A stretch of DNA of 64,000 bases from Thiomicrospira sp. (lineage in GTDB: Bacteria; Pseudomonadota; Gammaproteobacteria; Thiomicrospirales; Thiomicrospiraceae): assembly GCF_014859555.1 (NCBI RefSeq), contig NZ_JACUTY010000005.1:1462-65461 (forward strand), read 5' to 3'. Below are positions 2,844 to 40,516 of the stretch, one piece after another. Below the pieces are notes generated by a model. It made no database searches. It was not told the DNA's origin and saw only the letters and a list, made by a program, of their open reading frames with translations. Both the position numbers and the translations under genes were made by a program. Numbering within the stretch: the first letter of the stretch is position 1; each line of letters begins with the position of its first letter.

Positions 2844-3908
2844 TTAAACGTGGTATTTAGGGCTTAACTCAACCACGGCTTCAATAAAGGCACCGGCATG
2901 TTCCGGTTTCACTTCTGGGTGAATACCGTGACCTAGGTTAAAGATATGGCCTGAACCTTGGCCATACTTTTCTAAAATATACTCGACTTCTTGGCGAATA
3001 CGTTCAGGTGATGCATATAACATGCTTGGGTCCATGTTGCCTTGAATCGCGACGCGATCACCAACACGACGACGAGCATCATCAATATCGGTTGTCCAAT
3101 CCAAACCAAGTGCATCCGCACCGGTATCGGCCATAGCCTCTAGCCATTGGCCGCCACCTTTGGTGAATAGAATAACCGGCACTTTAACGCCGTTATGTTC
3201 ACGTTTTAAGCCGTCAACAATCTTCGCCATGTAGTTTAGTGAGAATTCTTTATAGTCACGTGGCGTTAATACGCCGCCCCAAGTGTCAAAAATTTGCACA
3301 GCTTGCGCGCCGGCTTCAATTTGGGCGTTTAGGTATTCAATTACCGAGTCAGCCAATATATCCAAAATATGGTGCAAGGTTGCTGGCTGGTCGTACATCA
3401 TAGCTTTAATGATGGAAAAGGTTTTGCTTGAGCTGCCTTCAACCATATAGGTGGCCAAGGTCCAAGGACTGCCAGAGAAACCAATTAAAGGCACGCGACC
3501 GTTTAGGGCTTTACGAATCGTACTGACCGCGTTCATGACATAACCCAAATCTGAGCCCATATCCGGTACATAAAGTTTTTTAGCATCCGCCATTGAGCGG
3601 ATAGGTTTGTCAAAGACGGGGCCTTCGCCCGTCGCAAAACGTAATCCTAGCCCCATCGCATCCGGAATGGTTAAGATGTCTGAAAACAAAATCGCTGCAT
3701 CAAGAGGAAAACGCTCTAACGGTTGCAAGGTGACCTCACAAGCGAACTCTGCATTACGGCACAAATCCATAAACGAACCAGCTTGTGCACGGGTCGCGCG
3801 ATATTCTGGTAGGTAGCGACCCGCTTGGCGCATCATCCATACAGGCGTGCGGTCAACAGGCTGGCGCATTAAAGCGCGTAAGAAACGGTCGTTTTGTAAT
3901 GCAGACAT
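2844..3908 (-). CDS. hemE: Uroporphyrinogen decarboxylase
   Basis: [23 protein letters not shown] and HIFNLGHG motifs. Confidence 0.97.
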
Positions 3909-3996: not shown

Positions 3997-4018
3997 CAAC
4001 CACCAGGCCTGGTGGTTG
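3997..4018. repeat. 22-bp perfect palindrome CAACCACCAGGCCTGGTGGTTG (long intergenic copy of the iterated palindrome)
   Basis: Read directly; lies 15 nt past the thermonuclease stop codon. Confidence 0.95.
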
Positions 4019-4032: not shown

Positions 4033-4842
4033 TTAAGGTTGATATGGATTAAGTTTGTCGATCATGTTGGGATGGGAAATCACCACGTACATCGCGCCTT
4101 GGTAGGCAAAGCCATAACCACGCACTTCGATAGTTTGGCCTTTTAAGGCTTCTACGTCACGATAATTAAAGTTCGGCCAATCTTCACGTTTAACCCTAAT
4201 ACCGGTGGTGTCTAGGTTAATAATGATGTTGTTACGGCTTTGCGATACCTGTCGAACTTCACCACGGATAATACGAAACCCTAAATCGACATCCGAAAGC
4301 TGACTGCTCAGGGCGACCGGAAACTTGAGTTCGGGTTGATTCACACTTAAACGCCAAATACCACGGTTAGCCTGTCGGGCGCGTTGTTCGGCACGGAAAT
4401 AGCATTCTTGGTATTTTAAATTGGGTGGATTGGTTTCCACCATGCCTAAGCCATTTTCTAGCAACAGTTCATTAACATTGCGGCCATCTTCTAAAAATAA
4501 ATGCGCCACCACTCGACCAAAGCCATCCATTCGCTGTTGGTCAAACTCTATTCCAATTTTGCGGTCGTTATTGGCCAAGATACGATTTAGGAAAGTAAGT
4601 GATTCGCGTGATAATGGTCGCGGCGGGTCTGTTCGTTTGCTGAGATCACCCATTTCAGGGGCATAAACACCGGCCATAATATATTGGCGACTGCCAACGA
4701 TGACGACATTTCCGGCTTGGGCAATGCGGGCCTTTTCCCAGTTGTCGATATTAGTTGGCCCACAATTTTGTGCATGTACCGAACTCAACCACAGGGTGCT
4801 TAAAAGAAATAGAAGGCTAAAAAGGCTGGAGTGTTTTTTCAT
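4033..4842 (-). CDS. Secreted thermonuclease (SNase) family protein with C-terminal OB-like region; catalytic residues appear degenerate
   Basis: Signal peptide (SSVHA); GVYAPE, DGFGR, NVNELLLENGL and AEQRARQANRGIW match the SNase fold. Confidence 0.75.
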   Translation of the reverse strand: MKKHSSLFSLLFLLSTLWLSSVHAQNCGPTNIDNWEKARIAQAGNVVIVGSRQYIMAGVYAPEMGDLSKRTDPPRPLSRESLTFLNRILANNDRKIGIEFDQQRMDGFGRVVAHLFLEDGRNVNELLLENGLGMVETNPPNLKYQECYFRAEQRARQANRGIWRLSVNQPELKFPVALSSQLSDVDLGFRIIRGEVRQVSQSRNNIIINLDTTGIRVKREDWPNFNYRDVEALKGQTIEVRGYGFAYQGAMYVVISHPNMIDKLNPYQP

Positions 4843-7397: not shown

Positions 7398-9596
7398 ATG
7401 GATATTACATTTATATTAAACGACTTAAACGATGCGCAACGTGAAGCGGTAACTTTAGAAGAACGCCACGCGTTAATTTTGGCCGGTGCGGGCAGTGGTA
7501 AAACACGCGTATTGGTGCATCGCATCGCTTGGTTAACCGAAGTGATGAAATTGTCGCCGTTTAATATTCTAGCCGTCACCTTTACTAATAAAGCCGCACG
7601 TGAGATGCGGGGCCGAATGGAACAGTTAATTGGTCACCAAGCCCAGGGCGTGACCATGGGAACCTTCCACGGTATTGCTTATCGCTTATTACGCCAGCAT
7701 TATGAAGCCGCCGGCTTACCGCAAAGTTTTCAAATTTTAGATTCGGATGATCAAAAGCGTTTAGTTAAACGTTTATTAAAGGCGATGGAGCTGGATGAAA
7801 CTCAGTGGCCGGTCAAACAAGTGCAAGCTTATATTAATGGTGAAAAAGAAGAAGGGCGTCGTCCGCATCATATTGACCCGGGTCACAATCCGTTTGTAAA
7901 AAAAATGCTGCAAATTTACCAAGCTTACGAACAACAGTGTCAAAAAGCAGGCCTGGTGGATTTCGCCGAGCTGTTGTTGCGTGCGCATGAACTCTGGCTG
8001 AAACGCCCTGAGATTCTGAGTTTTTATCAAGCACGTTATAAACACATCTTGGTGGACGAGTTCCAAGATACCAATAGCTTGCAGTATGCCTGGTTGCGTG
8101 TGTTGGCGGGCGCCACGGGCAAGTTGTTTGTGGTGGGTGACGATGACCAGTCTATTTATGGTTGGCGTGGCGCAAAAATCGAAAACATTCGATTGTTTGA
8201 GCAGGAGTTTGCCGATGTTAAAACCGTGCGTTTGGAACAAAATTATCGTTCCACCGGGCGTATTCTGAAAGCCGCCAACCATATTATTGCGTTTAACACC
8301 GAACGTATGGGCAAAGAGCTTTGGAGCGCGGGCGAAGATGGCGACCCTATTCGTATCTATGAATCTTTTAACGAATATGACGAAGCCAACTATGTGATCA
8401 GCCAAGCCAAAGCGTGGGTTGAGCAGGGTGGCGAGCGTTCTGATGTCGCGATCTTGTATCGTTCCAACGCACAATCGCGCGTGTTTGAGCAGGCGTTGAT
8501 TCAAGCCGAAATGCCTTATCGAATTTATGGCGGTTTGCGGTTTTATGATCGTGCTGAAGTCAAAGACGTATTGGCTTATTTGCGTTTATTGGTAAACCGC
8601 GATGACGATGCGTCGTTTGAACGGGTTTATAACCAACCCACGCGTGGCTTAGGCGAAAAAACCATGCAAACCGTGCGTGACTTAGCACGTGATTTGGGTT
8701 TGTCTTTATGGGATGCGGCCAAGGTTCAATTGGAATCCGGTTTAACTGCACGCGCGAAAGGAGCATTGAGTGGCTTTTTGGATTTAGTCGAGCAGTTGCA
8801 AATAGATACCCAAGGTAAAAGTTTACAAGATCAAGTAATGATGGTGATTTCACGTTCTGGGCTGCAAACGCATTTTGAAAAAGACCGCTCAGAACAAGGC
8901 CAAGCCCGGGTCGAAAACTTGGATGAACTGATTAATGCGGCCAGTGGCTTTGATAAAGCCCCGCCCGCCGAGAAAAACCCCAATCCCGATGATTTAGACG
9001 CGGCGATTAGCGATAATCCATTATTAAACTTTTTAGCTCAAGCAACCTTGGAAGCCGGAGATAATCAGGCCGAAGCTTGGGAGTCGGCGATACAGCTAAT
9101 GACCTTACATTCGGCCAAGGGTTTGGAGTTTCCACTGGTCTTTATGGTCGGGCTGGAAGAAGGTTTGTTCCCGTCTAAACCCTCGTTTGACGATCCGCTT
9201 CGGCTTGAAGAAGAACGTCGCCTAGCTTATGTCGGCATTACGCGTGCTGAACAAAAGCTGGTAATGACTTATGCTTTGCGCCGACGTTTGCACGGTACAG
9301 AAATTTACGCCGGGCCATCGCGTTTTCTAAAAGAGTTGCCGGAGGATTGTTTGGATTGGGTGCGGATGACTGGCCAAGTACAAACCGCGCGTGATTGGGC
9401 GTCGTCGAGTAGCCAAAAAACTCAGCATAACGAAGCTGGTTTTGTGATGGGGCAGCGTGTGTTTCATCAAAAATTTGGTGAAGGCACCGTATTGGCGACC
9501 GAAGGCTCGGGTGATCATGCACGTATTCAGGTTAATTTTAAACACGCGGGCTCTAAGTGGTTGGTTAAGGCTTACGCCAACTTGGAGACGGTTTAA
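7398..9596 (+). CDS. uvrD: DNA helicase II
   Basis: AGAGSGKT, DEFQDTN, VGDDDQSIY, MTLHSAKGLEF and EERRLAYVGITRA motifs plus C-terminal Tudor-like domain. Confidence 0.96.
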   Translation: MDITFILNDLNDAQREAVTLEERHALILAGAGSGKTRVLVHRIAWLTEVMKLSPFNILAVTFTNKAAREMRGRMEQLIGHQAQGVTMGTFHGIAYRLLRQHYEAAGLPQSFQILDSDDQKRLVKRLLKAMELDETQWPVKQVQAYINGEKEEGRRPHHIDPGHNPFVKKMLQIYQAYEQQCQKAGLVDFAELLLRAHELWLKRPEILSFYQARYKHILVDEFQDTNSLQYAWLRVLAGATGKLFVVGDDDQSIYGWRGAKIENIRLFEQEFADVKTVRLEQNYRSTGRILKAANHIIAFNTERMGKELWSAGEDGDPIRIYESFNEYDEANYVISQAKAWVEQGGERSDVAILYRSNAQSRVFEQALIQAEMPYRIYGGLRFYDRAEVKDVLAYLRLLVNRDDDASFERVYNQPTRGLGEKTMQTVRDLARDLGLSLWDAAKVQLESGLTARAKGALSGFLDLVEQLQIDTQGKSLQDQVMMVISRSGLQTHFEKDRSEQGQARVENLDELINAASGFDKAPPAEKNPNPDDLDAAISDNPLLNFLAQATLEAGDNQAEAWESAIQLMTLHSAKGLEFPLVFMVGLEEGLFPSKPSFDDPLRLEEERRLAYVGITRAEQKLVMTYALRRRLHGTEIYAGPSRFLKELPEDCLDWVRMTGQVQTARDWASSSSQKTQHNEAGFVMGQRVFHQKFGEGTVLATEGSGDHARIQVNFKHAGSKWLVKAYANLETV

Positions 9597-10750: not shown

Positions 10751-11533
10751 ATGGTTTCCTGGCTGATTTCAACCGACTTAGATGGCACTTTGTTAAATCA
10801 TAAAACCTATGACTACACCGGGATTGTTGCGTTATTGGCGAAGTTAGAAATGCAGGCAGTGCCAGTGATTTTGAACTCCAGTAAAACCCTAGCCGAGCTC
10901 ACAAAGTGGCGTCAAACCCTGCATTTAAAATGGCCAGTGATTGGTGAAAATGGCGGGGTTATTCAAGTAGATCAGTCGCCACCGATGTTAATCGGCCGAC
11001 CAATTAACGAAATAAGGGCGTTTTTAAACCGCTGGCGAGACCATCATGGCCAGCTGTTTGAAGGTTTTGGTGATTGGTCAGTCGAGCAGGTGATCAAGCA
11101 TACCGGGCTAAGCCGAGAAGATGCTTTGAATGCTCAACAGCGTTTGGTTTCCGAACCGATTTTATGGTTGGCTGAACCACCAGGCCTGGTGCTATTGGAA
11201 CAGGCTTTAGCACAGCAGGGTTTGCAGCTTCAAAAAGGTGGCCGTTTTTATCATGTGATGGCACAACATTCCAAGGCCAGCACGCTCAAAATTCTACTCA
11301 AAAACAGTGATCGCTATTTGGGCGATCAGACCGATTGGCATCTACTCGCATTAGGTGATGGCGAAAATGACCGCGCGATGCTCGAAATGGCCGAGGTTGC
11401 GGTGGTAATGCCGGATGCTAGTGGCCAATATTTAAGCCTAGATTCAAATAATCAAATCTATCAAGCCCAACAATCCGCCCCGCAAGGTTGGTTGGATGCG
11501 GTCAATCGGTGGGTATTAAAGGAGGCGGAATGA
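10751..11533 (+). CDS. gpgP: HAD-IIB glucosyl/mannosyl-3-phosphoglycerate phosphatase (GpgP/MpgP family)
   Basis: TDLDGTLL, NSSKT, GENGG and LGDGEND motifs; first gene of the cluster. Confidence 0.85.
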   Translation: MVSWLISTDLDGTLLNHKTYDYTGIVALLAKLEMQAVPVILNSSKTLAELTKWRQTLHLKWPVIGENGGVIQVDQSPPMLIGRPINEIRAFLNRWRDHHGQLFEGFGDWSVEQVIKHTGLSREDALNAQQRLVSEPILWLAEPPGLVLLEQALAQQGLQLQKGGRFYHVMAQHSKASTLKILLKNSDRYLGDQTDWHLLALGDGENDRAMLEMAEVAVVMPDASGQYLSLDSNNQIYQAQQSAPQGWLDAVNRWVLKEAE

Positions 11534-12753: not shown

Positions 12754-14529
12754 ATGAGTCAGATGATATTTGAGCGCATTAAGCATCGTTTAGAAAAACT
12801 CTACCCGCTGGAATCGGCGAAAGATGCGTATCAAGAATTAAACCGACTGATTCAAATCTGCGGCGTCGAACCGGAGCTTGAAGTTGAACGCTGGAACCAA
12901 GAAGATGTGGTGTTAATTAGTTACGCCGACAGTATTATTGACAGCGAACAAGGCCATCAACCTTTGCAAGTGTTGCGTGAGTTTCTGCAAGAGTATGTCA
13001 AAGATGCGGTGAATACGATTCACCTGTTGCCGTTTTTTCCATTTAGTTCTGATGATGGCTTTTCGGTGATCGATTTTGTCAAAGTCGAGCCGGACTTTGG
13101 TGACTGGCCGGATATTCAGGCCATCAGTGCGGATTACCAACTCATGGTGGATTTGGTGATTAATCATATCTCGCGTGAGAGTTTATGGTTTACCGATTAC
13201 AAAGCCGATGTGCCACCGTTTAATCGGTTTTTTATTGAAGTGGATGGCCGCGAAGATGTGACGATGGTGGTGCGTCCACGAAACTCGCCGTTATTGGTGC
13301 CGGCTTATACCCACCGTGGACGCAAAATGGTTTGGGCGACCTTTAGTGCCGATCAGATTGACTTAAACTTCGAAAATCCCGCTGTTTTGGTGAAAATGAT
13401 TGAAGTCTTGTTGTTTTACGTTAAACAAAAAACCCATATTCTGCGTTTAGACGCAATTGCATTTTTATGGAAAAAACTCGGTACTAACTGCATTCATTTG
13501 CCCGAAACCCATGAGGTAGTGAAACTGATTCGTGATGTATTTGAATTGGTAAATCCGAACGGCATGGTTTTAACCGAAACCAACGTTCCGCACAACGAAA
13601 ACCTATCCTACTTTGGGCAGCAAGACGAAGCGCATTTGGTGTATCAATTTAGTTTAGCGCCTTTGGTGTTACATGCTTTATACCGTGGCGATGGTGCTTA
13701 TTTAACCCAATGGGCGCAACAACTTAAACCACCGGCGCAAGGCTGTAACTTTTTGAACTTTACGGCGTCGCATGATGGGATTGGTTTACGTCCGGTCGAA
13801 GGTATTTTGCCGCAGCGGGAAATTGAAGATTTGATCACCGGTATGCACCGTCAAGGTGGTTATATTTCGATGCGTACTCGGCCAGATGGTTCAGAGTCAC
13901 CCTATGAAATCAACATCGCTTTGTTTAGTGCATTTCGTGAAACCGCCAACAGCCAAGGCCCGGATCAGTGGCAGGTGGATCGGTTTATTAATTCGCAATT
14001 AATTATGTTGAGTTTGCAGGGCATCCCAGCCATTTATATCCACAGTTTATTGGCCACTGAAAACGATCAAACCGGGGTAGAGCGCACCGGTAGAACCCGC
14101 AGCATCAATCGCAAAAAATGGGATAAAACCTATTTAAAAGCCTTGTTGGATGGTCAAAACACCGCCAACTCGCAAGTTTTAAACCGCTTAATTCATGTGT
14201 TGAAACGCCGCAAAAAACACAAAGCCTTTCATCCAGATACGTCACAAAAAGTGTTGGATTTAGGTACGGGGTTTTTTGCGGTTTGGCGCGGGTTAGGTGA
14301 ATTAGATTTTCCATTATTATCAATTTTCAATTTAACCAGTGAGGTTAAAGAACTCGATATTCAGCATGAAATTGGATTCGAGAGTGCTGAAGGTTGGGTG
14401 AATATTTTAGATCACGAACATTATGAACCTCAGAATCAGCTGTTGGTTTTGCAGCCATACCAAGTATTGTGGTTAATGCCGGATAACGTTGATAACGTTA
14501 GCCCGTTATGGGCAATGAGCACCAGTTAA
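12754..14529 (+). CDS. GH13_18 sugar phosphorylase, likely glucosylglycerate phosphorylase
   Basis: HLLPFFPFSSDDGF, DLVINH, RLDAIAF, TETN, SHDGIG and PYEIN motifs. ETN/YE variants are typical of the glucosylglycerate-specific branch rather than sucrose phosphorylase (EIH/YQ). Confidence 0.82.
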   Translation: MSQMIFERIKHRLEKLYPLESAKDAYQELNRLIQICGVEPELEVERWNQEDVVLISYADSIIDSEQGHQPLQVLREFLQEYVKDAVNTIHLLPFFPFSSDDGFSVIDFVKVEPDFGDWPDIQAISADYQLMVDLVINHISRESLWFTDYKADVPPFNRFFIEVDGREDVTMVVRPRNSPLLVPAYTHRGRKMVWATFSADQIDLNFENPAVLVKMIEVLLFYVKQKTHILRLDAIAFLWKKLGTNCIHLPETHEVVKLIRDVFELVNPNGMVLTETNVPHNENLSYFGQQDEAHLVYQFSLAPLVLHALYRGDGAYLTQWAQQLKPPAQGCNFLNFTASHDGIGLRPVEGILPQREIEDLITGMHRQGGYISMRTRPDGSESPYEINIALFSAFRETANSQGPDQWQVDRFINSQLIMLSLQGIPAIYIHSLLATENDQTGVERTGRTRSINRKKWDKTYLKALLDGQNTANSQVLNRLIHVLKRRKKHKAFHPDTSQKVLDLGTGFFAVWRGLGELDFPLLSIFNLTSEVKELDIQHEIGFESAEGWVNILDHEHYEPQNQLLVLQPYQVLWLMPDNVDNVSPLWAMSTS

Positions 14530-14530
14530 A

Positions 14531-14544
14531 CACCAGGCCTGGTG
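14531..14544. repeat. CACCAGGCCTGGTG palindrome between convergent genes
   Basis: Occupies most of the 21-nt gap between the phosphorylase and glycerate kinase stop codons. Confidence 0.95.
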
Positions 14545-14550
14545 GTTAAG

Positions 14551-15672
14551 TTAATGTAAATAAAGCTTTAACGCACTGTAGAGGGTCGATTTGAGCCAAT
14601 GTTCGGTGTGATTCATGGCATCTGCTTCATCGGTTAAACGATGGATTAGACTAAACAACGCTATAAATTCCGGCATTTGCTCGGCGCTGATATCAAGCTG
14701 ACCGCAAAGGCCGAGAATCGGTACATCATAACGTTGCGCCATTTCCGCTAGTTTCATGGGCAGTTTGCCGTGGCGAGTTTGTGCGTCCATGCGGCCTTCA
14801 CCCGTAATCACTAAATCTACGCCTTGTTCAAAGGTTTGATGTAGTCCAATGGTTTCAGCGAGCAAATCAAAGCCACTAAAGGTTTGCGCATTCAAAATCC
14901 CCATAAATCCGCCGGCCATACCGCCCGCCGCACCAGCACCAGGCCTGGTGGTTATATTGTGGCCGGTTCGTTGTTCAATTAATTCGGCAAACTTGGTTAG
15001 GGCTTGTTCAAATTCGGCATGAGTTTGTGGCGTCACACCTTTTTGCGGACCGTAGACTGTGGTGGCGCCTTGCTCGCCAAGCAATGGGTTGGTGACATCG
15101 CAGGCCAGATGCCATTTGATATTTGATAAGTGTGCGGGAATATGCCCGATTTTGTCTAGTTTCAACAAGCCCTGAACGCCGGGCTTGATTGGTTGGTCTT
15201 TATCATCCGACAATTCAATTCCCAGCGCTTGCAAAGCCCCTGCGCCGCCATCGTTCGTGGCGCTGCCGCCTAGTCCTAATATGATAGTGCGAGCGCCCAG
15301 TTCGAGCGCGGCTTTAATCACCAGGCCGGTGCCATAGGTGCTGGCTTGCATCGGATCGCGTTCTTGTTTGCTGATTAGGGGTAAGCCGGAGGCTTGTGCC
15401 ATTTCGATCATCGCGGTTTGACGGTCGGCTTGCCAACCAAACGTGGCTTGAATCGGGCGAGCTAGCGGATCAAGGCTGTCGACAACTCGACGTTCGGCTT
15501 GGCCAGATTCTGTAATCGCCGCCACAAAACCTTCGCCGCCATCAGACAAGGGGCGTTCAATCACTTCGATATCAGGCCAGTGGTGTTTGATAACTTGAGC
15601 ACCGATGCGGCAAAATTCCACTGCCGTAAGCGAGCCTTTAAAGCTGTCGGGGGCGATTAGAATTCGGCGCAT
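14551..15672 (-). CDS. glxK: Glycerate kinase (GlxK/GarK family)
   Basis: IAPDSFKGSL, DGGEG, GLGGSATNDGG, GAGAAGG and ITGEGRMD motifs. Confidence 0.92.
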   Translation of the reverse strand: MRRILIAPDSFKGSLTAVEFCRIGAQVIKHHWPDIEVIERPLSDGGEGFVAAITESGQAERRVVDSLDPLARPIQATFGWQADRQTAMIEMAQASGLPLISKQERDPMQASTYGTGLVIKAALELGARTIILGLGGSATNDGGAGALQALGIELSDDKDQPIKPGVQGLLKLDKIGHIPAHLSNIKWHLACDVTNPLLGEQGATTVYGPQKGVTPQTHAEFEQALTKFAELIEQRTGHNITTRPGAGAAGGMAGGFMGILNAQTFSGFDLLAETIGLHQTFEQGVDLVITGEGRMDAQTRHGKLPMKLAEMAQRYDVPILGLCGQLDISAEQMPEFIALFSLIHRLTDEADAMNHTEHWLKSTLYSALKLYLH

Positions 15673-15686
15673 AGTAAAAACTCCGG

Positions 15687-16571
15687 TTACATGGTTTCGA
15701 GTTGCAGGGTAACGTGGTGTACCGCGTGGCGATCGTTAAGATAGGATTTAATTTCAAACAAGGTCGCGTCATTAATGTGTGCTAAATCGGTTTTGGCGTG
15801 TAATGTCATCATGACTTGTTGTTCTGCAATCGCCCATAAATGAATGTGGTGAATTTCTTCTAGGTAAGGGAAACGTTCAGCCAAGTCGTCTTTAATGGCC
15901 TGGATTTCGTAACCCGCTGGCACACCTTCTAATAAAATGGTGGCGGCCGAACGGGTCAGTTTGAAGGCATTATAAGCAATAATACTGGCGACCAGGATCG
16001 ACAAAATCGGGTCGACAATGTTCCAGCCGGAAAAGTAGATAATAATCGCGGCGCTAATGACCGCAACCGACGCTAAGGTGTCGCCCATAAAGTGAAGTGT
16101 TGCGCCGCGCATGTTTAGGTTTTTTTGATCACCGCTGTGTAACATCACAAATACGGTTAAATTAATCCCTAAACCAATAATGGCGATCATAAACATTTCC
16201 GCGCCCATGACTTCTTGCGGGTTAAACATACGTTCAATCGCCATGGCGGTGATGCCGACCGAAATTAACAGCAAGGCGGCACCGTTTACAAATGCGGTTA
16301 GAATTTGGGCGCGCATATAACCAAACGTCATGCGTTCGGTGGCCGGTTTTTGCGCGATATGAAAACCCCACCAAGCAATCATTAAGGCGATTGAGTCGGT
16401 TAGCATGTGCATACCATCGGCAATCAGCGCGACCGAGTTGACCCAAAAGCCGCCAATAACTTCGACCAGCATATAGCTAAAGGTTAAAACGGCGGCAATG
16501 ACTATTTTACGCTGATTTTTTGTATCAGGTTTGGCGCTATGGCTATGGTGCGGCGAGCTATGTGAGTGCAT
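15687..16571 (-). CDS. Cation diffusion facilitator (CzcD/ZitB-like Zn/Co/Cd exporter)
   Basis: His-rich N-terminus, ALIADGMHMLTD, NMRGATLHFMGD and HHIHLW. Confidence 0.9.
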   Translation of the reverse strand: MHSHSSPHHSHSAKPDTKNQRKIVIAAVLTFSYMLVEVIGGFWVNSVALIADGMHMLTDSIALMIAWWGFHIAQKPATERMTFGYMRAQILTAFVNGAALLLISVGITAMAIERMFNPQEVMGAEMFMIAIIGLGINLTVFVMLHSGDQKNLNMRGATLHFMGDTLASVAVISAAIIIYFSGWNIVDPILSILVASIIAYNAFKLTRSAATILLEGVPAGYEIQAIKDDLAERFPYLEEIHHIHLWAIAEQQVMMTLHAKTDLAHINDATLFEIKSYLNDRHAVHHVTLQLETM

Positions 16572-16581
16572 GCTAAAAGTC

Positions 16582-16803
16582 TCAAAAATTAAAAAATTGG
16601 CGATTAAATGAGTTTAATCCGGGTGGGTTCACGCTGGCGACGGTAAAAAACGAATAAGGCGCCAAATTTTGCACACCGTCCGAATTTAGGGTGATGATCC
16701 AGGCAATCGGGCGTGGCACAATGCCGCCGACTAAAAAGCGGTAGATTTCCGGTGGACTCAACTCGGATACAGACTTAAATATATTAACTTTTTCTAAAAC
16801 CAA
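16582..16803 (-). pseudogene. Truncated flavin reductase-like (DIM6/NTAB) gene
   Basis: IVPRPIAWI...NLAPYSFF...NPP matches the family N-terminus, but the ORF ends after 73 aa (family about 200 aa) and runs into the CDF gene. Confidence 0.75.
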
Positions 16804-16837
16804 TCATCATTTTACAACAATCTAACCGAAGTTAAAC

Positions 16838-17512
16838 TTAGAGTGTTTTCGCCATCGCCCAAGCCTCAACCACCAGGCCTGGTTGGGCGTCTTGAAGACG
16901 GCTGGCGGCGGCTTGCATGGTTGCGCCAGTGGTAATGACATCGTCGAGTAATGCGACGCGGTCAAAATCTTTTAATAAGACCGCGTCGGCTTCAAAGGCT
17001 TGCTTAAGATTTTGACGACGTTGTTTGGCTTTAAGTTGGGTTTGACTCGGGGTGGCGAGCGGGCGTGTTAATGCCGAAACAATCGGAATATTTAGCATTG
17101 GGCTTAACATCCGCGCCAATTCATACGCCTGGTTATAGCCACGTTCGCGCAGTCGTGTGCTATGCAGTGGGATCGGAATGATGGCTTGAATCCCTTGGGT
17201 GTGTAATTGCGGGGCTAACAGTTCGGCAAACAGACGACTTAAATCCAGTCGTTGGTGATATTTAAATTGGGCCATTAAATCGCGAAATTCAGCTTGGTAA
17301 GTGAACGCCACTTGGGTGCGACTGAATTGGGGTGGCTTGGACAAACACTGACCACATAGCAAACCCTGCGGACTGGGCTCGGCACAACATGGACAAACGT
17401 CGGAGCCAATTTGCCACTGAGCTATAAAGCTCGGGTCTAAGTCGTGTTTTTTGGTCGTAACCGCCGTGATGACGCAGGTTGGCGGAAATAGCCATTTTTC
17501 AAGCCAATGCAT
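16838..17512 (-). CDS. comF: ComF family competence protein (PRTase fold)
   Basis: CPCC...CGQC Zn motif, RGYNQA and LLDDVITTGAT. Likely ATG at 17512 (MHWLEK). Confidence 0.92.
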   Translation of the reverse strand: MHWLEKWLFPPTCVITAVTTKKHDLDPSFIAQWQIGSDVCPCCAEPSPQGLLCGQCLSKPPQFSRTQVAFTYQAEFRDLMAQFKYHQRLDLSRLFAELLAPQLHTQGIQAIIPIPLHSTRLRERGYNQAYELARMLSPMLNIPIVSALTRPLATPSQTQLKAKQRRQNLKQAFEADAVLLKDFDRVALLDDVITTGATMQAAASRLQDAQPGLVVEAWAMAKTL

Positions 17513-17573
17513 TTTCCAAATCCTGGTTGAATAATCGTTATAATAACCGCTTATTCTAAACACGAGTCTCGAA

Positions 17574-18566
17574 ATGAAATCTTTAGGACAAGTTCGTCAC
17601 GATTGGACCTCGGCGGAAATTCACGCCATTATGAATCAACCCTTTAATGACTTAATGTTTCAAGCGCACACGGTTCACCGTATGAACTTTGAACCTAACG
17701 AAGTGCAAATTAGCAGCTTGGTTAATATTAAATCAGGCGGCTGTGCGGAAGACTGTTCGTATTGTTCACAAAGCTCGCGTTACGACACAGGTTTGGAAAA
17801 ACAAAAAATGATGGCGGTACAAGAAGTATTGGATAAAGCCATGCAAGCCAAAGCCAAAGGCGCAACCCGTTTGTGTATGGGCGCGGCTTGGCGTAACCCG
17901 AATAAAAAAGACTTTCCGGTGGTATTGGAAATGGTCAAAGTGGTGCGCGATTTAGGCATGGAAACTTGTATGACCTTAGGCATGTTGGACGATGACCAGG
18001 TCGCGGCTTTAAAAGAAGCCGGCTTGGATTATTACAACCACAACCTGGATACTTCCGAAGCCTATTATTCAAAAGTGATTACCACCCGTTCTTTCCAAGA
18101 CCGTTTGGATACCATTGACAAGGTACAAAAATCCGGTATCAACGTCTGCTCAGGCGGCATTATCGGTATGGGCGAACAGCATAAAGATCGCACCGAATTA
18201 TTGCGCACCTTCGCTAATATGGATAATCATCCCGGCAGTGTACCGATTAACTTGTTAGTGCCAATCGAAGGCACCCCTTTGGCTGAAATGAAGGGTAAAA
18301 CCGATGCGTTTGAGTTTATTCGTGTGATTGCGACCGCACGTATTTTAATGCCGCAATCTTATGTGCGTTTGTCCGCCGGTCGGATGGAATTAAACCAACA
18401 AGCCCAGGCCTGGTGCTTTTTTGCCGGCGCCAACTCGATTTTCTATGGCGATAAGTTATTAACCACCGACAATCCCGAAGCCGATCATGATGTGCAATTG
18501 TTTAAAAAGCTAGGTTTAAATATGCAAGCCCAGGCTAAAGCCCATCTTGCAGAAGAGTCGGCTTAA
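17574..18566 (+). CDS. bioB: Biotin synthase
   Basis: Radical [28 protein letters not shown] and VRLSAGR. Confidence 0.97.
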
Positions 18567-18574
18567 GTTTTGCC

Positions 18575-19738
18575 ATGAAACCCACTATCGCAGATCGGTT
18601 TCAACCTAAGTTAGACGAACGCCAAGCGCAATCTCTTTATCGCCAACGCCCGTTGGCGTTTTCCCCACAACGTCCGCAAATGCAAATCAATGGTTTGCCG
18701 ATGCTGAATTTTTGCTCGAATGATTATTTAGGCCTCGCCGCCGATCCGCGCATAAAGCAAGCCGTGTGTAATGACGATACAGCAGGCTGGGGATCCGGAG
18801 CGGCGCATCTGGTGACGGGTCATCATTTGCATCATCATTTATTGGAAGATGAATTGGCCGACTGGTTAGGCGTGGAGCGTGTGTTGTTATTTTCGACCGG
18901 TTATATGGCGAACCTGGCGGTGCAACAAACCCTGATGCAAAAAGGCGATCGAATACTCGGCGATAAACTGAATCACGCCTCGTTAATTGATGGCGCATTG
19001 GCCAGCGGCGCGGACTTTAAACGTTATTCGCATCTTGATTACCACGCCTTAGAAACCCGCTTGGAACAATCCGATGCGCCCAGCTTAATCGTCAGCGACA
19101 GTGTGTTTAGTATGGATGGCGATTTAGCCGATTTAGCCAAACTGCAACAGCTAGCAAATAAGCACCAGGCCTGGTTGTTTGTGGATGATGCGCATGGTTT
19201 AGGTGTTTTGGGTAAACAAGGTAAAGGCAGTTTTGATCACTTTAACCTGCCGATCGACGCCGATAACATCTTAGTTGGCACATTTGGCAAGGCGTTCGGT
19301 ACATCGGGCGCATTTGTGGCCGGCTCGAGCGTGTTAATCGAAAGCTTAATTCAGTTTGCGCGACCGTTTATTTATACCACCGCCATGTCACCGATGAATG
19401 CCTTAGCGACACGTACCGCTTTAAAACTGTTGCGAGAAGGTGATGACTTACGTGATCAACTGCACGCTAACATTGCACAATTTAGAACCGGAGCGAAGGC
19501 GTTAGGTTTGAACTTAATGCCTTCGGTCAGCGCAATTCAGCCGATATTATTGGGTGATAGTGCAAAAGCCGTGGCCTGGAGTGAAGCACTTAAGCAAGCC
19601 GGTTTTTGGGTTTCAGCGATTCGCCCACCCACCGTGCCACAAGCACGCTTGCGAGTGACCTTAAGTGCCGCGCATTCTGACGCGCAAATTGAAGCACTCT
19701 TATCTGCACTCGCACACATAAAAAAAGCGGACATTTAA
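18575..19738 (+). CDS. bioF: 8-amino-7-oxononanoate synthase
   Basis: FCSNDYLGL, NHASLIDG, VDDAHG, GTFGKAFG and AIRPPTVP. Confidence 0.96.
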   Translation: MKPTIADRFQPKLDERQAQSLYRQRPLAFSPQRPQMQINGLPMLNFCSNDYLGLAADPRIKQAVCNDDTAGWGSGAAHLVTGHHLHHHLLEDELADWLGVERVLLFSTGYMANLAVQQTLMQKGDRILGDKLNHASLIDGALASGADFKRYSHLDYHALETRLEQSDAPSLIVSDSVFSMDGDLADLAKLQQLANKHQAWLFVDDAHGLGVLGKQGKGSFDHFNLPIDADNILVGTFGKAFGTSGAFVAGSSVLIESLIQFARPFIYTTAMSPMNALATRTALKLLREGDDLRDQLHANIAQFRTGAKALGLNLMPSVSAIQPILLGDSAKAVAWSEALKQAGFWVSAIRPPTVPQARLRVTLSAAHSDAQIEALLSALAHIKKADI

Positions 19739-19749
19739 TCCGCTTTTTT
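19721..19749. terminator. Intrinsic terminator overlapping the bioF stop
   Basis: AAAAAAGCGGA...TCCGCTTTTTT; immediately followed by a 22-bp copy of the palindrome. Confidence 0.75.
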
Positions 19750-19771
19750 TAACCACCAGGCCTGGTGGTTA
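19750..19771. repeat. 22-bp perfect palindrome TAACCACCAGGCCTGGTGGTTA
   Basis: Read directly; its last 3 nt are the stop codon of the DsrE-like gene. Confidence 0.95.
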
Positions 19772-20266
19772 CCAGGCAATAAATGCAAAGCCTGCGGCTT
19801 GAAGCTCCATTAAAGCGGCGGCACCAACTTCGGCGTATTCTGCAAATGGGCGCATGTCTTTATGTTCCCAGCCGATGGTGTGCATGGTGTTGCCGCAAGC
19901 AATCCAACGCACGTTGTAGTCTTTTGCAAAACTCTCAACGCGGTCATAAATTAAAGACGGGACTTCGCGCTTAGGTTCTTTGGCCAAAACGTGAATGCCT
20001 GGGCCTATTACCACTACCGCAATTTCAACATCATCGCCGTACTGACGAATCATCGCTTGAATCGAGTTAAGAATGCTGGCTTGATAAGCTTCATCGGCTT
20101 GGTTAAACATATATACCACTTTATGCGTGGCGGGGTCGCCTGGGAAACGGTCTTGGCTTGGGCCTTTAATTTCAGGCACCGTCTTAAGGTTGTCACTAGC
20201 GATGGTTGGGGCGCTAAAGCCTAGGCTGGCGATTAAGCTAATCGCAAATATTTGAAGAAAACGCAT
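19769..20266 (-). CDS. Periplasmic DsrE/DsrF-like family protein
   Basis: Signal peptide, HKVVYMFN, VVVIGPGIH, IACGNT and GAAALMELQ. Likely ATG at 20266 after AAGGAG. Confidence 0.8.
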   Translation of the reverse strand: MRFLQIFAISLIASLGFSAPTIASDNLKTVPEIKGPSQDRFPGDPATHKVVYMFNQADEAYQASILNSIQAMIRQYGDDVEIAVVVIGPGIHVLAKEPKREVPSLIYDRVESFAKDYNVRWIACGNTMHTIGWEHKDMRPFAEYAEVGAAALMELQAAGFAFIAW

Positions 20267-20474
20267 TACACAGCTCCTTACCTTAAACAAAGACACAAAT
20301 ACTTATGGCTATAAGTATAAAGAAAATAATGCAGGCTTGTTGACTTGAATCCGGAGAATTCGCATTGCTTACACGATTGGCTAGGGATTTTAGGCGAAAA
20401 AAAACCGCGAGGCTGAAAAGACAATCTCACGGTTCCGGCTGCTTAAACACAAGTGTTAGAGCAACAAATTAGGA

Positions 20475-20684
20475 TTAAAGTGCTGTAACGTTTTCCGCTT
20501 GTAAGCCCTTATCACCTTCAGTAATGTTGAAAGTCACTGCTTGACCTTCAGCTAGGGTTCTACGGCCGTTGCCATTGATGGCACGGAAATGTACGAATAC
20601 ATCTGGACCATTTTCTTGTGCTAAAAAACCGAAACCTTTTTCATCGTTAAACCATTTAACGGTGCCTGTTACTATATCTGACAT
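20475..20684 (-). CDS. cspA: Cold-shock protein
   Basis: [14 protein letters not shown] (RNP1) and DVFVHF (RNP2); 69 aa. Confidence 0.95.
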
Positions 20685-20895
20685 AACTACCTCAAAAAAA
20701 ACAAATAAAACGCCATCAAACTTAATGACGCTTGATCATTGTATCACCATGTTTTTAAAAAAGTATTGTTATATATGAATTATTTATTAATCAGTTCGCG
20801 AAAATGAGTGCCTGACATGCAAAAAAGCGCCTTTTCTATGGCGTTGGCGTCACGCAATCGTTACAATCCTTACAACTTATTTTTTGAGCAAAATC

Positions 20896-21699
20896 ATGAA
20901 ATCCAGCATTAAATTGAATACCGAAACCTTTGGTCAAGGCAAATCGCTCTGCCTAATTCATGGCTGGGGCGCGCAAAATTCGGTTTGGCGAGAGTGGGCT
21001 CAAACCCATCTTGCGCCTCATTTTGAAGTTACATTAATTGAATTACCGGGTTTTGGTGGTAGTCCAAAAATTGAATTGCAAGCGGGTGAAGACCTCAACC
21101 AGGCCTGGTTGGATGCGGTGGCCGATGTATTGCCGACCAAAACGTATTTATTAGGCTGGTCACTGGGTGGTTTGATTGCACTACAATTGGCCGAACGTTA
21201 TCCACAGCACATTAAATCTTTGATATGTTTGGCTTCTACGCCCAGTTTTGTGCAAACCGAGAATTGGAAATGGGGCGTTTCACCGGAATTAATGGGCGAC
21301 TTTATTAAAACCTTGGGTCTAGATAGCTTGGCGCTTTTAAGTCGGTTTTGGAAATTACAGTTGCAAGGATCGGATGGTGCACGCCAACTGATCAAACATT
21401 TTACGACCCAGATGAAAAATCGACGGATGCCAAGTTTCATCGGGTTATTACAAGGTTTGGAGTTATTACGTGATATTGATATGCGCAAAAATTTAGCCTC
21501 AATCCAACAACCCACGTTATGGTTGCTAGGCGAAAACGATCCGTTAGTACCGCAAGAGATCGTCAAGCTTTTACCCGAAATGCAGCCGAATTCGCAAGTT
21601 GAAATTATTCAAGGCGCCGCGCATGTTCCGTTTTTTTCGCATCCTGAGCAAACCGCGCAAAAAGTGAATGCTTTTTTATTAGGCGGTACACATGGTTAA
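20896..21699 (+). CDS. bioH: Pimeloyl-ACP methyl ester esterase
   Basis: LIHGWG, GWSLGG nucleophile elbow and AAHVPF. Start could be TTG 20884 or ATG 20896. Confidence 0.9.
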   Translation: MKSSIKLNTETFGQGKSLCLIHGWGAQNSVWREWAQTHLAPHFEVTLIELPGFGGSPKIELQAGEDLNQAWLDAVADVLPTKTYLLGWSLGGLIALQLAERYPQHIKSLICLASTPSFVQTENWKWGVSPELMGDFIKTLGLDSLALLSRFWKLQLQGSDGARQLIKHFTTQMKNRRMPSFIGLLQGLELLRDIDMRKNLASIQQPTLWLLGENDPLVPQEIVKLLPEMQPNSQVEIIQGAAHVPFFSHPEQTAQKVNAFLLGGTHG

Positions 21700-22627
21700 T
21701 CGCCAACATTTACGACAACATTTCTCCAAAGCCGCCGCACGTTACGATGAAGCGGCGGTATTGCAAAAGCTGTCCGCGCAAAACCTGGACAATCGTTTAG
21801 ATTTAATGGCGATGCAAGTAAACCAAGTATTAGATGTGGGCGCGGGCACTGGGTTTTTAACCGACAAATTGCTCGCGCGTTATCCCCATGCACAGATTAG
21901 CGCGTTGGATTTATCCCATAGCATGTTGCAACAAGCCAAGCGGCGTTTAATGCGCCCAATCTTTAACTGGTTGCCACCAAACTGGTCAACCCGTTTGGGT
22001 TGGTTAGCTTGTCCGGTGGCTTTAATTCAAGCCGATGCTTATGCTTTGCCGGTAGCCGATGCCAGTCAGGACTTGGTTGTTACCAACTTTATGTTGCAAT
22101 GGTGCGACGATTTAGATGCGGTGTTGGCGGAATTTCGACGCGTATTGCGCCCGGAAGGTTTGTTAATGCTTACCAGCTTGGGGCCGGATACCTTAAAAGA
22201 ACTCCGCCAGGCCTGGGTGTCGGTAGAAGGCGAAGCCGGGCATCAGCGTATGAATCATTTTATAGATATGCACGATTTAGGTGATGCGTTAATTCGCGCC
22301 GGCTTTGGTCAGCCAGTTATGGATGTGGAGCATTATACTTTAACGTATGATGAACCAATTGGTGTAATGCGCGACTTAAAAGCCATCGGTGCGACCAACG
22401 CGCAAGGCGAGCGCGCACAAGGTTTAACTGGCAAAACACGCTTTAAAGCCATGTTGGATGCGTATGAACTGGCGCGCAAACAGGGCAAAATTCCCGCTAG
22501 TTATGAAATTGTGCATGGCCACGCTTGGGCGGCTGAAGAAGTTATGAAAGGCCCGGGCCGCAATAAAGCCGGGGTTTATGAAATCACGTTAGACCAGTTT
22601 CAAAATCAATTAAAACCAGGGAGTTAA
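21692..22627 (+). CDS. bioC: Malonyl-ACP O-methyltransferase
   Basis: FSKAAARYD, LDVGAGTG, SLGPDTLKELR, FIDMHDLGD and DLKAIGA. Confidence 0.92.
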   Translation: MVNRQHLRQHFSKAAARYDEAAVLQKLSAQNLDNRLDLMAMQVNQVLDVGAGTGFLTDKLLARYPHAQISALDLSHSMLQQAKRRLMRPIFNWLPPNWSTRLGWLACPVALIQADAYALPVADASQDLVVTNFMLQWCDDLDAVLAEFRRVLRPEGLLMLTSLGPDTLKELRQAWVSVEGEAGHQRMNHFIDMHDLGDALIRAGFGQPVMDVEHYTLTYDEPIGVMRDLKAIGATNAQGERAQGLTGKTRFKAMLDAYELARKQGKIPASYEIVHGHAWAAEEVMKGPGRNKAGVYEITLDQFQNQLKPGS

Positions 22628-22631
22628 GTTT

Positions 22632-23003
22632 ATGTATTTCGGATTAGTTTTATTGCACAAAATCGCGGTGTTATTAAGCATTGTTGGGTTTTTTGGCCGC
22701 GGTGTTGGGCATATTTTTAACCAAAACTGGGTCACCAAAAAGCCGGTTAAAATTCTGCCACACATTGTGGATACTTTATTATTGGTCTCAGCGATCGGGA
22801 TAGTACTGGTCACCGGTTTTAGTTTCACCGATCCGTGGATTGTCGCCAAAATCTTAGGTTTAGTTGCTTATATTGGCTTAGGTTTAATGGCCTTCCGCTT
22901 CGCCAAAACCCGCGCCCAAAAAGCGATTTATTGGTTAATCGCCTTAGTTGTGTTGTTCTATATCGTTGCAGTAGCGGTACATAAGGTTGTTTGGCCGTTC
23001 TAA
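22632..23003 (+). CDS. SirB2-family inner membrane protein
   Basis: 4-TM protein with ILPHIVDTLLLVSAI and WIVAKI...YIGLG signatures. Confidence 0.8.
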   Translation: MYFGLVLLHKIAVLLSIVGFFGRGVGHIFNQNWVTKKPVKILPHIVDTLLLVSAIGIVLVTGFSFTDPWIVAKILGLVAYIGLGLMAFRFAKTRAQKAIYWLIALVVLFYIVAVAVHKVVWPF

Positions 23004-23031
23004 TGCAAGCTATGTGGCGCAAGTGTGTAGC

Positions 23032-23706
23032 TTAGCGGCGGAATGGGCTTTGGTTTTTGAGTGCGAGTCTGAACCAGGCGATGGCAATTGGAATGCAGGC
23101 CAATGCTGGGATCAGTAGACTGGCACCATGCCAGTTGGCAAACATGATGATGCCGAAGATGCCGCCGACAAGAAAGGTCGAAACTAGCGTAATTAACAAC
23201 CAGGCCTGCCAAGGCCAGCCCTGGCCTTTGATCATTCTAGCCATATAAACACCCAAGTCGGTGACGATGCCAGTGACGTGGGTTGTGCGCATTTGTAGGC
23301 CACGGTATTTAGCGGTGAGGGCGTTTTGTAGGCCGCAAGCAAAAGCAGTGGTAAATAAGGTCGCTAGGTGCATTTGGCTGGCGAGCCAGGCGCTAATAAA
23401 CAGGCTAGCGGAAAGCAAGGTCATGCCGAGTGCAAACCGCCGATCTTGAGGGCTTTCTCGATCACCAATCACCAGGCCTGAAACCAGTGCGCCAAGTATA
23501 AATCCAATCAGCACTAATAAACCTTTAAAACCTAACGCCCAATCTGTGTGATACATGCTTTCACTTAAACGAGACATGATCCCGGTCATTTGGCTGACGG
23601 GTAAGCCAAATTCTAAGAATAAAATAGTGTTGATATAACCGGCTTGCATGGCCATAAAGCCACCCAATAGCATAAAATTTCGAATAGAAAAGGGGTTTGG
23701 GTTCAT
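23032..23706 (-). CDS. YoaK/DUF1275 family membrane protein
   Basis: AGYINT, SQMTG, ACGLQNA and RTTHVTG motifs. Confidence 0.85.
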   Translation of the reverse strand: MNPNPFSIRNFMLLGGFMAMQAGYINTILFLEFGLPVSQMTGIMSRLSESMYHTDWALGFKGLLVLIGFILGALVSGLVIGDRESPQDRRFALGMTLLSASLFISAWLASQMHLATLFTTAFACGLQNALTAKYRGLQMRTTHVTGIVTDLGVYMARMIKGQGWPWQAWLLITLVSTFLVGGIFGIIMFANWHGASLLIPALACIPIAIAWFRLALKNQSPFRR

Positions 23707-23732
23707 TATGTTGGATTTATGTTTTTTAAAGT

Positions 23733-23754
23733 AAAAGCGCCCATTAAAGGGCGC
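23733..23754 (-). terminator. Intrinsic terminator of rpoH
   Basis: GCGCCC-tttaat-GGGCGC-TTTT on the minus strand. Confidence 0.65.
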
Positions 23755-23779
23755 GTATAAAGAGAGAGTTGAGCGAGTG

Positions 23780-24646: not shown

Positions 24647-24821
24647 GTTTCACGACCTCTTCAGTTGTTTTTTCTATCCGTTTAAAATAACACTTGTGAA
24701 CAAAAATAGCAAGTGTGTTTTGTATATGGCTTGTAATGATGCTGGCCGATATTGTGTAATTATTACAGTAGGTTGGATGTCAAAGTTAAAGCTAAATTTA
24801 GAGTAAATTGTGGATGGCGGC

Positions 24822-25343: not shown

Positions 25344-25348
25344 GTTAC

Positions 25349-27385: not shown

Positions 27386-27429
27386 AAAAGCTTCCTTTTG
27401 TAAAAGGCCATGAATAGAATGCTTGTTTC

Positions 27430-27458
27430 ATCATAATCATCTGGGTTGTAAAAGTCAA
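27430..27458 (-). promoter_or_regulatory. sigma70 promoter of copB (TTGACT-17-TATGAT)
   Basis: On the minus strand: -35 at 27453-27458, -10 at 27430-27435, 17-nt spacer. Confidence 0.65.
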
Positions 27459-27590
27459 AAGACTAATTAATTGATTTGTAATGCATTATTAATGCTGTGA
27501 TTAAGGGTGGCTCTGCTTGACGAACTGAATTGATGCCTGATTGGCTAAGAGTGGGTACAATGTTTGCATTTGTTGATTGGCGTAATTTAA

Positions 27591-28616: not shown

Positions 28617-28630
28617 ATCTATTCGAGTGG

Positions 28631-29329: not shown

Positions 29330-29335
29330 AAGGGG

Positions 29336-40470: not shown

Positions 40471-40484
40471 TTGATGTAAATAAA
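40471..40484 (+). promoter_or_regulatory. FNR/Anr-like box upstream of ccoG
   Basis: TTGAT-GTAA-ATAAA, 9/10 match to consensus. Confidence 0.55.
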
Positions 40485-40516
40485 AATAGGCCTATATATA
40501 GGCCTATTTTTATTTA
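40477..40516. terminator. Loop-less 40-bp perfect palindrome (likely terminator or cruciform)
   Basis: TAAATAAAAATAGGCCTATATATAGGCCTATTTTTATTTA. Confidence 0.7.

Follow-up and report, generated by a model that had tools for sequence, protein, structure and literature searches.

Highly iterated palindromes (HIPs) are known from cyanobacteria, where HIP1 (GCGATCGC) is replaced in particular lineages by the variants GGGATCCC, TCGATCGA, GGCGCC, GCsGC or rCCGGy (as cACCGGCa), and for all HIPs there is a circumstantial link to a resident methyltransferase with a recognition site inside the word (Elhai 2015, PMC4390886). HIP1 sites are conserved (Xu, Lawrence & Durand 2018, PMC5861425), and the octamer over-represented in Synechococcus sp. 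PCC 6312, with 0.37 copies per kb and an observed-to-expected ratio of 14.7, is CAGGCCTG (PMC5861425). According to recent preprints, methylation of HIP1 enhances natural transformation of Synechococcus PCC 7002 up to more than 100-fold, and the authors suggest that HIP1 is an uptake signal and/or has a Chi-like role. HIPs have been regarded as peculiar to cyanobacteria, and what they do has been a question for some 30 years. The octamer of PCC 6312 is also iterated in a 64,000-nucleotide stretch (hereafter the window) of the gammaproteobacterial sulfur oxidiser Thiomicrospira sp. (contig NZ_JACUTY010000005.1, positions 1,462 to 65,461), where it forms the core of a longer palindromic word. 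This word is a DNA-level signal of the HIP class. The searchable literature yielded no description of a comparable word from Thiomicrospira or other gammaproteobacteria, and a full-text search for its central 10-mer CCAGGCCTGG returned only crystallography and primer matches, nothing bacterial.

Like the HIPs, the word is a palindromic, GC-rich octamer present at hundreds of copies per Mb inside and between genes, with symmetric extensions, conservation at orthologous sites, and loss or replacement in some lineages; it differs from HIP1 in sequence and in phylum. Its enrichment is more than 15-fold at a density in the range of 0.3 to 2.7 copies per kb, it occurs in all reading frames as well as in intergenic DNA, its sites are conserved above controls, and its symmetric extensions have lineage-specific variants and replacements. 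Another attribute of HIPs, that they have been described so far only in cyanobacteria, does not hold here, but it is taxonomic rather than mechanistic. In contrast to the report on the PCC 6312 octamer, for which conservation could not be assessed, conservation is shown here, and the word carries a symmetric extension to 12 to 22 nt with lineage-specific flanks. A sequence-only reading of the window had likened the repeat to HIP1 and had proposed two origins for it, Dcm/Vsr repair and Chi-type recombination; the likeness stands with respect to abundance, reading frames, site conservation and flank variants, whereas neither origin was upheld.

Abundance, sharpness and distribution of the palindrome

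The 16-mer CCACCAGGCCTGGTGG, which had been taken as the unit, has exact matches at 4000-4015 and 19753-19768, and its anatomy was correctly described as CCAGG plus CCTGG with GGCC and AGGCCT inside. The conserved unit, however, is not this 16-mer but the 8-mer core CAGGCCTG with a lineage-specific symmetric extension. Both 16-mer sites extend to perfect palindromes of 22 nt (3997-4018 and 19750-19771), the longest copies in the window. The core is present in 28 copies (0.44 per kb, compared with 0.37 in PCC 6312) where 0.83 would be expected under a second-order Markov model, an enrichment of about 34-fold compared with 14.7 in the cyanobacterium. Longer versions depart further from expectation: 22 copies of the 10-mer CCAGGCCTGG versus 0.05 in dinucleotide-preserving shuffles, 15 matches to CCACCAGGCCTGGTGG with at most two mismatches versus 0.01, and 11 matches to the 20-mer with at most three mismatches versus none. 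Position counts over all copies give the window consensus (cc)ACCAGGCCTGGT(gg), with an invariant core, 16 instances of ACCAGGCCTGGT and weaker outer cc/gg positions; information content spans 12 to 16 bp of the palindrome.

The word is sharply bounded. Cores with one mismatch number 23 versus 18.4 expected, and those with two number 219 versus 202, so there is no halo of degenerate copies; one-off variants have been described as common for HIP1. When the window and the loci of word-carrying relatives were pooled (about 0.45 Mb), 139 perfect 10-mers were found, and each one-off variant at a core position had only 0 to 3 copies. No deamination signature was seen among these pooled variants, and transitions were not favoured.

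A scan of one genome per species (185,579 species) for the 14-mer CACCAGGCCTGGTG matched at least 113 loci; because these loci were chosen for containing the 14-mer, only extra cores were counted. Among the matches listed, 31 loci from Thiomicrospira, Hydrogenovibrio, Thiomicrorhabdus or Piscirickettsiaceae genomes had 2.8 extra cores per 10 kb, and the other 82 loci, mostly high-GC, had 0.39. The core is restricted to the group of Thiomicrospira, Hydrogenovibrio and their close relatives. Isolates carrying the word include T. microaerophila ASL8-2, Thiomicrospira sp. WB1 and H. halophilus DSM 15072, for which reason an assembly artefact was rejected. Of the window sequence, 98% can be found in a metagenome run from a volcano, and soda-lake runs are among the metagenome runs that contain relatives.

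Flanks were compared in metagenome loci fetched via BioB, bioB being the sole gene neighbourhood sampled across relatives. The flank type ACCAGGCCTGGT is shared by the window and loci L133 and L136; the type G[A/C]CCAGGCCTGG[T/G]C is found in L121, L128 and L132; and TTAGCAGGCCTGCTAA or GAACAGGCCTGTTC, without CCWGG, is found in L114, L129 and L134. The TGG flank is lineage-specific, the flanks of relatives being GGTA, GGTC or GCTAA. No copies of the word are present in loci L116, L118, L120 and L124. Locus L115 (metagenome contig Ga0193952_1000003, 1-15357), whose BioB is 83% identical to that of the window, also has no CAGGCCTG and carries inside its genes another iterated palindrome, (tt)ACCGGCCGGT(aa), with ten copies of CCGGCCGG and seven of the 10-mer ACCGGCCGGT in 15 kb; it resembles the cyanobacterial replacement word of rCCGGy/ACCGGC type. 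In the bioF gene of L115, the ancestral QAW site has become NAW (Y-N-A-W), and a new copy of ACCGGCCGGT lies 11 nt upstream. On a neighbour-joining tree of BioB, which as a single-gene tree is approximate, most clade branches have the core and the outgroups do not; it was lost at least twice and replaced once.

Word density varies in other loci. In 8 kb of T. microaerophila ASL8-2 (L090:1-8000) the core is found 14 times, which at 1.75 per kb is four times the window density. These cores fall within three large adjacent open reading frames (ORFs) that encode a SbcC/Rad50-like ATPase, a 1,154-aa protein bearing a GFGKT Walker-A-like motif and a protein of 731 aa and unknown function; four copies in the SbcC/Rad50-like ORF read H-Q-A-W-(L/H). 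A temperate-phage fragment (L214:1-12462, IMG/VR UViG 3300001336_000470), encoding an integrase, a CI-like repressor, Ant, a RecE-like exonuclease and SSB, has 4 cores in 12.5 kb, approximately the host density, three of the four with acC...Ggt flanks; L211 likewise has 4 cores in 14.5 kb. In L124:1-5214, one of the loci that lack CAGGCCTG, GGCGCC occurs 7 times versus about 1 expected and TGGCGCCA 3 times versus 0.06 expected in 5.2 kb; on this small sample these may be a third iterated palindrome, parallel to the GGCGCC HIP of Calothrix PCC 7103.

That the word is shared with a cyanobacterium and yet is lost or replaced among close relatives argues for a portable molecular cause, such as the specificity of an enzyme or receptor. 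Tentatively, the Thiomicrospiraceae may possess a true HIP system outside cyanobacteria, with the octamer of PCC 6312 and a determinant (either a methyltransferase or a protein of DNA uptake or recombination) that would have switched several times within this one small family, to give ACCAGGCCTGGT, GCAGGCCTGC, ACCGGCCGGT, perhaps TGGCGCCA, and none. If so, close relatives with different words or none are a natural experiment, in which phylogenetic profiling could pinpoint the gene behind HIPs and reveal whether HIPs are signals for uptake or recombination. The phenomenon is thereby seen in culturable chemolithoautotrophic gammaproteobacteria of small genome size that share one cyanobacterium's octamer, and the clade is a tractable comparative system for finding the cause of HIPs.

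Pressure on DNA and retention of sites

Within genes, the word overrides ordinary codon choice. The tripeptide Q-A-W is written CAGGCCTGG in 9 of 11 cases, where codon usage predicts about 10% (about 1.1 cases), and P-G-L is written CCAGGCCTG in 8 of 12 cases, where about 1.6% (about 0.2 cases) is predicted. The peptides themselves are over-represented in the window (QAW 11 versus 1.8 expected, PGL 12 versus 6.1, RPG 6 versus 2.7), in contrast to the reversed control peptides WAQ, LGP and GPR, which are not. A peptide motif was rejected on the basis of codon choice and these reversed controls. One copy comes at the expense of protein conservation: the BioB protein of the window has AQAWC where approximately 80 relatives have AQA[L/M]C, and the change to tryptophan creates the palindrome at 18404-18413; the nearest relative, L114, has the same tryptophan in DNA that is one base short of the word. 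At the conserved BioF YQAWL and BioC RQAW peptides, lineages that carry the word use CAGGCCTGG, whereas lineages without it use CAAGCTTGG, CAAGCGTGG and similar sequences. The pressure acts at the DNA level, against codon usage and sometimes against protein conservation, and its strength is sufficient to change codons and even residues that are otherwise conserved.

Alignments to orthologous DNA (79% identity for L105, 71 to 82% for L114) have no gaps at the sites, which indicates that copies arise by substitution in place and not by insertion. Some gains comprise many changes within about 10 bp, as in CCACCAGGCCTGGTAC of L105 versus CCAATAAGCTTGATAT of the window, or AGGCAGGCCT of L114 versus ATCTTTAACT of the window. 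Once present, sites tend to persist: of 301 core sites aligned in 12 related loci, 186 are conserved, compared with 36 predicted by control 8-mers from these alignments. In this count the pairs of loci are not independent of one another, and much of the signal comes from two sites, those in bioF and bioC. Close pairs that are independent agree with this: the conserved sites are 5/6 and 5/5 for L133 and L136 (control rate 0.47), 5/5 and 5/6 for L123 and L125 (0.42), and 4/4 and 4/5 for L129 and L134 (0.17).

The copies also leave a mark on assemblies. Over positions 14000-30000, metagenome contigs from four runs have apparent joints or loose ends at about 14548, 14953, 16883, 18405, 19160-19163, 19770, 23215 and 25211, each at a copy of the palindrome; these have the appearance of cross-links that the repeat created during alignment or assembly, and not of real rearrangements, and short-read assemblies and alignments may be confused by the word in this way.

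Candidate causes of the iterated word

The two-fold symmetry of the word, which reaches into the lineage-specific flanks, suggests that it is read as duplex DNA by a symmetric protein. As a first step, proposed with fair confidence from the sequence pattern, a symmetric (dimeric) protein would recognise the duplex word, with a specificity that drifts between lineages. In a second step this protein would serve to recognise self-DNA when DNA is taken up or undergoes homologous recombination, its target probably being the central GGCC or AGGCCT in methylated form; fragments bearing the word would be preferentially taken up or recombined, and biased gene conversion would spread and restore the word. 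The best guess, with a probability of roughly 35 to 40%, is a symmetric tag for uptake or recombination that marks self-DNA, probably by methylation, and is spread by biased conversion. The whole palindrome may have a methylation-dependent or recombination-stimulating role, such as is now proposed for HIP1, and by analogy with HIP1 in Synechococcus PCC 7002 the word may matter for the genetic transformation of its carriers.

Such a tag is favoured because the sharpness of the word, its lineage-specific flanks, its effects on peptides, its hairpin copies at 3' ends of genes and its positional stability parallel the uptake signal sequences (USS) of Pasteurellaceae and the DNA uptake sequences (DUS) of Neisseriaceae. 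By established knowledge, these occur at about one copy per 1 to 3 kb in all frames, affect peptides, have lineage dialects and intergenic hairpin copies at 3' ends, and are stable in position. Two genes of DNA uptake or processing are present in the window, each with a copy of the word: a ComF/GntX-family gene (16838-17563, - strand) and dprA (55856-56968, + strand); as both are widespread, they are permissive evidence only. A third gene tied to DNA uptake or processing, for a thermonuclease-like protein (4033-4842, - strand), ends just before the first 22-nt palindrome.

Several points weigh against a self-DNA tag. No cognate methyltransferase, receptor or nuclease was identified in the window or the loci of relatives, and no report of natural transformation in the Thiomicrospira clade was found in the literature. 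The uptake sequences known so far are asymmetric, are recognised by the uptake machinery and form terminators as inverted pairs, whereas the word here is a perfect palindrome. The host-like density in the phage fragment L214 is explained at least as easily by a repair ratchet or by selection on the phage.

The main rival, itself rather unlikely, is a methylation-directed repair ratchet on the central GGCC or AGGCCT, by which copies would be restored within the cell without exchange of DNA. According to Elhai's HIP model, a resident methyltransferase would mark GGCC, and mismatch repair or a Vsr-like activity would resolve near-misses towards the word. The central GGCC with its G-C step is common to the CAGGCCTG lineages and to the replacement word ACCGGCCGGT; cyanobacterial HIPs co-occur with methyltransferases of the internal site, and HIP switches coincide with gains of methyltransferases; the lack of an excess of one-off core variants is as expected under active restoration; and the motif density of the prophage-like fragment L214 is consistent with a process internal to the cell. 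The ratchet has more difficulty with the internal sites themselves, which are not enriched elsewhere (AGGCCT outside the core 6 versus 12.7 expected; GGCC 287 versus a Markov expectation of 326), and with C-to-T one-off variants, which are no more depleted than other one-offs. Neither the window nor some 0.5 Mb from the loci of relatives was found to contain a matching methyltransferase or Vsr gene, and the 12 to 16 bp of information exceed typical type II methyltransferase sites.

Less probable is a binding site for an abundant chromosome-organising or DNA-maintenance protein, with each copy under ordinary selection, as Xu et al. have suggested for HIP1. Orthologous copies are about 5-fold more conserved than control 8-mers, symmetric flanks that co-vary by lineage would fit a dimeric binder, and HIP1 has been reported as conserved and quasi-periodic. 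The spacing of the 28 cores over the window is no more regular than random placement, however (coefficient of variation 0.87, P = 0.29); four of the five alignable copies of the new word in L115 sit where aligned relatives have no old copy; and much of the apparent conservation is found at QAW peptides, which the word can use at no cost, so that parallel gain could mimic conservation.

An orientation-independent Chi-type signal, in which CCTGGTGG on both strands would attenuate RecBCD or AddAB from either side, is very unlikely. The likeness lies in CCTGGTGG, the 8-mer half of the longest copies, which by established knowledge is one mismatch from E. coli Chi (GCTGGTGG); a Chi-like contribution has been suggested for HIP1 in the literature, and copies in the phage fragment L214 lie in and beside its RecE-like exonuclease gene. 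As a standalone signal, however, the Chi-like octamer hardly exists: 17 of the 18 occurrences of CCTGGTGG or CCACCAGG are flanks of the palindrome, and with a single copy outside it, the strand-skew check that had been proposed for lone copies has nothing to act on. E. coli Chi itself occurs 0 and 1 times on the two strands of the window. The resemblance belongs to the variable flank: TGG differs between lineages, and it is the non-Chi-like core that is conserved. Known Chi sites are asymmetric, co-oriented with replication, strand-skewed and only few-fold enriched, whereas the word is enriched 30- to 400-fold. The asymmetry of the flanks (11 versus 7) merely tracks the GC skew, the + strand being G-rich throughout the window (skew +0.07).

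Very-short-patch repair by Dcm and Vsr at two abutting CCWGG sites is the most improbable explanation, and in its simple form it is contradicted. The 10-mer of the window does contain CCAGG and CCTGG, and such repair is established to raise CCWGG frequency in E. coli, but outside the motif there is no general excess (CCAGG 44 versus 45.5 expected, CCTGG 39 versus 47.6), and the expected CTWGG deficit is absent, with CTTGG (106 versus 62.7) and CCAAG (87 versus 49.4) enriched rather than depleted; the low counts of CTAGG and CCTAG merely reflect a general scarcity of CTAG. The words GCAGGCCTGC and ACAGGCCTGT of sister lineages (those of L114, L129 and L134) keep the core with no CCWGG inside, and a 5-bp ratchet cannot specify a word of 12 to 16 bp. 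No gene for a DNA cytosine methyltransferase (dcm) or Vsr was found in the 64-kb window, which is a small part of the genome.

A regular-expression scan for 5-methylcytosine (m5C) methyltransferase motifs over the window and all loci of relatives (about 0.5 Mb) matched only one enzyme, at L136:6099-8159. It belongs to a restriction-modification pair inserted between Zn-peptidase and CDF-transporter genes, comprising an m5C methyltransferase with an N-terminal MerR-type helix-turn-helix and an EcoO109I-family endonuclease, and absent from L133, the 89%-identical sister locus. A member of this endonuclease family recognises RGGNCCY, and in view of this partner the methyltransferase was rejected as the cognate enzyme of the palindrome.

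Locations of the copies and neighbouring structures

The 28 copies of the window are given below; genes were called as longest non-overlapping ORFs only, by which 91% of the window is coding.

820-829: CCAGGCCTGG, in mutY (41-1222, + strand), reading Q-A-W
2611-2624: CACCAGGCCTGGTG, in an EAL/HDOD protein gene (1545-2759, + strand), reading P-G-L-V
3997-4018: 22-nt palindrome CAACCACCAGGCCTGGTGGTTG, intergenic, 15 nt past the stop of the thermonuclease-like gene (4033-4842, - strand) and about 90 nt upstream of hemE (2844-3908, - strand)
7948-7955: core only, gCAGGCCTGg, in uvrD (7398-9596, + strand), reading A-G-L
11178-11191: CACCAGGCCTGGTG, in a mannosyl/glucosyl-3-phosphoglycerate phosphatase-family gene (10751-11533, + strand), reading P-G-L-V
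14531-14544: copy, intergenic, between convergent neighbours (12754-14529, + strand, and 14551-15672, - strand)
14937-14950: copy, in a glycerate kinase gene (14551-15672, - strand), reading T-R-P-G with the rare AGG codon
16872-16883: copy, in the comF/gntX-family gene (16838-17563, - strand), reading P-G-L-V
18404-18413: copy, in bioB (17574-18566, + strand), reading Q-A-W
19164-19175: copy, in bioF (18575-19738, + strand), reading Q-A-W; core at the same position in 15 relatives' loci
19750-19771: 22-nt palindrome TAACCACCAGGCCTGGTGGTTA, between convergent bioF (+ strand) and a DsrE-like gene (19769-20296, - strand)
21096-21111: CAACCAGGCCTGGTTG, in bioH (20884-21699, + strand), reading Q-A-W
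22207-22216: copy, in bioC (21692-22627, + strand), reading Q-A-W; core at the same position in 8 relatives' loci
23201-23208: core, in a DUF1275 gene (23032-23706, - strand), reading Q-A-W
23473-23480: core, in the same DUF1275 gene (23032-23706, - strand), reading S-G-L
25201-25208: core, in a HutZ/HugZ-like gene (24822-25343, - strand), reading Q-A-C
26791-26798: core, in a copper P-type ATPase gene (25349-27385, - strand), reading R-P-G
27861-27870: copy, in a BtuC-like permease gene (27591-28616, + strand), reading P-G-L-V
29887-29898: copy, in a DUF255 thioredoxin-domain gene (29336-31114, - strand), reading Q-A-W
35997-36008: copy, in hisB (35756-36343, - strand), reading P-G-L-V
42306-42315: copy, in a FixH-domain gene (42126-42692, + strand), reading P-G-L-V
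44266-44279: copy, in a heavy-metal P-type ATPase gene (42696-45173, + strand), reading P-G-L-V; conserved in L105 (79% DNA identity)
53500-53513: AACCAGGCCTGGTT, in rsmB (53007-54314, - strand), reading Q-A-W
54658-54665: core, in fmt (54327-55268, - strand), reading Q-A-C
56785-56796: copy, in dprA (55856-56968, + strand), reading P-G-L-V
59038-59049: copy, intergenic, 12 nt past the stop of a PA2778-family peptidase gene (58019-59026, + strand)
61077-61086: copy, in topA (59410-61878, + strand), reading Q-A-W
63816-63827: copy, intergenic, about 87 nt downstream of argS (61966-63729, + strand), with no tRNA overlapping it

Genes contain 23 of the 28 cores (82%), in frames that read Q-A-W or Q-A-C (11), (P/S/A)-G-L (10) or R-P-G with its rare AGG codon (2). 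The host genes are ordinary housekeeping genes, such as mutY, uvrD, the bio genes, hisB, topA, rsmB, fmt, dprA and those of P-type ATPases. All five intergenic copies lie 1 to 90 nt past stop codons, two of them between convergent genes; the enrichment of intergenic copies is not significant (5 of 28 in 9% of the sequence, P = 0.11). When folded, the intergenic copies have stems of 6 to 10 bp with a four-base loop at the centre of the palindrome and segment minimum free energies (MFE) of -8.4 to -14.8 kcal/mol, and only the copy at 3997-4018 folds clearly better than shuffles (z = -2.35).

Intrinsic termination was rejected as a general function of the word, since no U-tract follows any intergenic copy in the window and most copies are intragenic. 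Repetitive extragenic palindromic (REP) sequences and bacterial interspersed mosaic elements (BIME) are similar in being short GC-rich palindromes able to form hairpins after genes. REPs, however, are extragenic and mobilised as units, whereas the word is mostly intragenic and arises by substitution without change of length; REP, BIME and miniature inverted-repeat transposable elements (MITE) were all rejected on intragenic location, gap-free orthologous alignments and constant length.

Two other palindromic structures were noted in the window. A strong, bidirectional, terminator-like hairpin, AAAAAAAGCGGACATTTAATCCGCTTTTTTT, lies at 19719-19750, directly 3' of bioF, and abuts the 22-nt palindrome there; the segment 19700-19785, which includes both, has an MFE of -28.8 kcal/mol (z = -5.7). 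At 40484-40511, in the intergenic DNA upstream of ccoG, a separate AT-flanked palindromic structure, AAAATAGGCCTATATATAGGCCTATTTT, holds TAGGCCTA twice; these units are AGGCCT sites that do not belong to the usual core.

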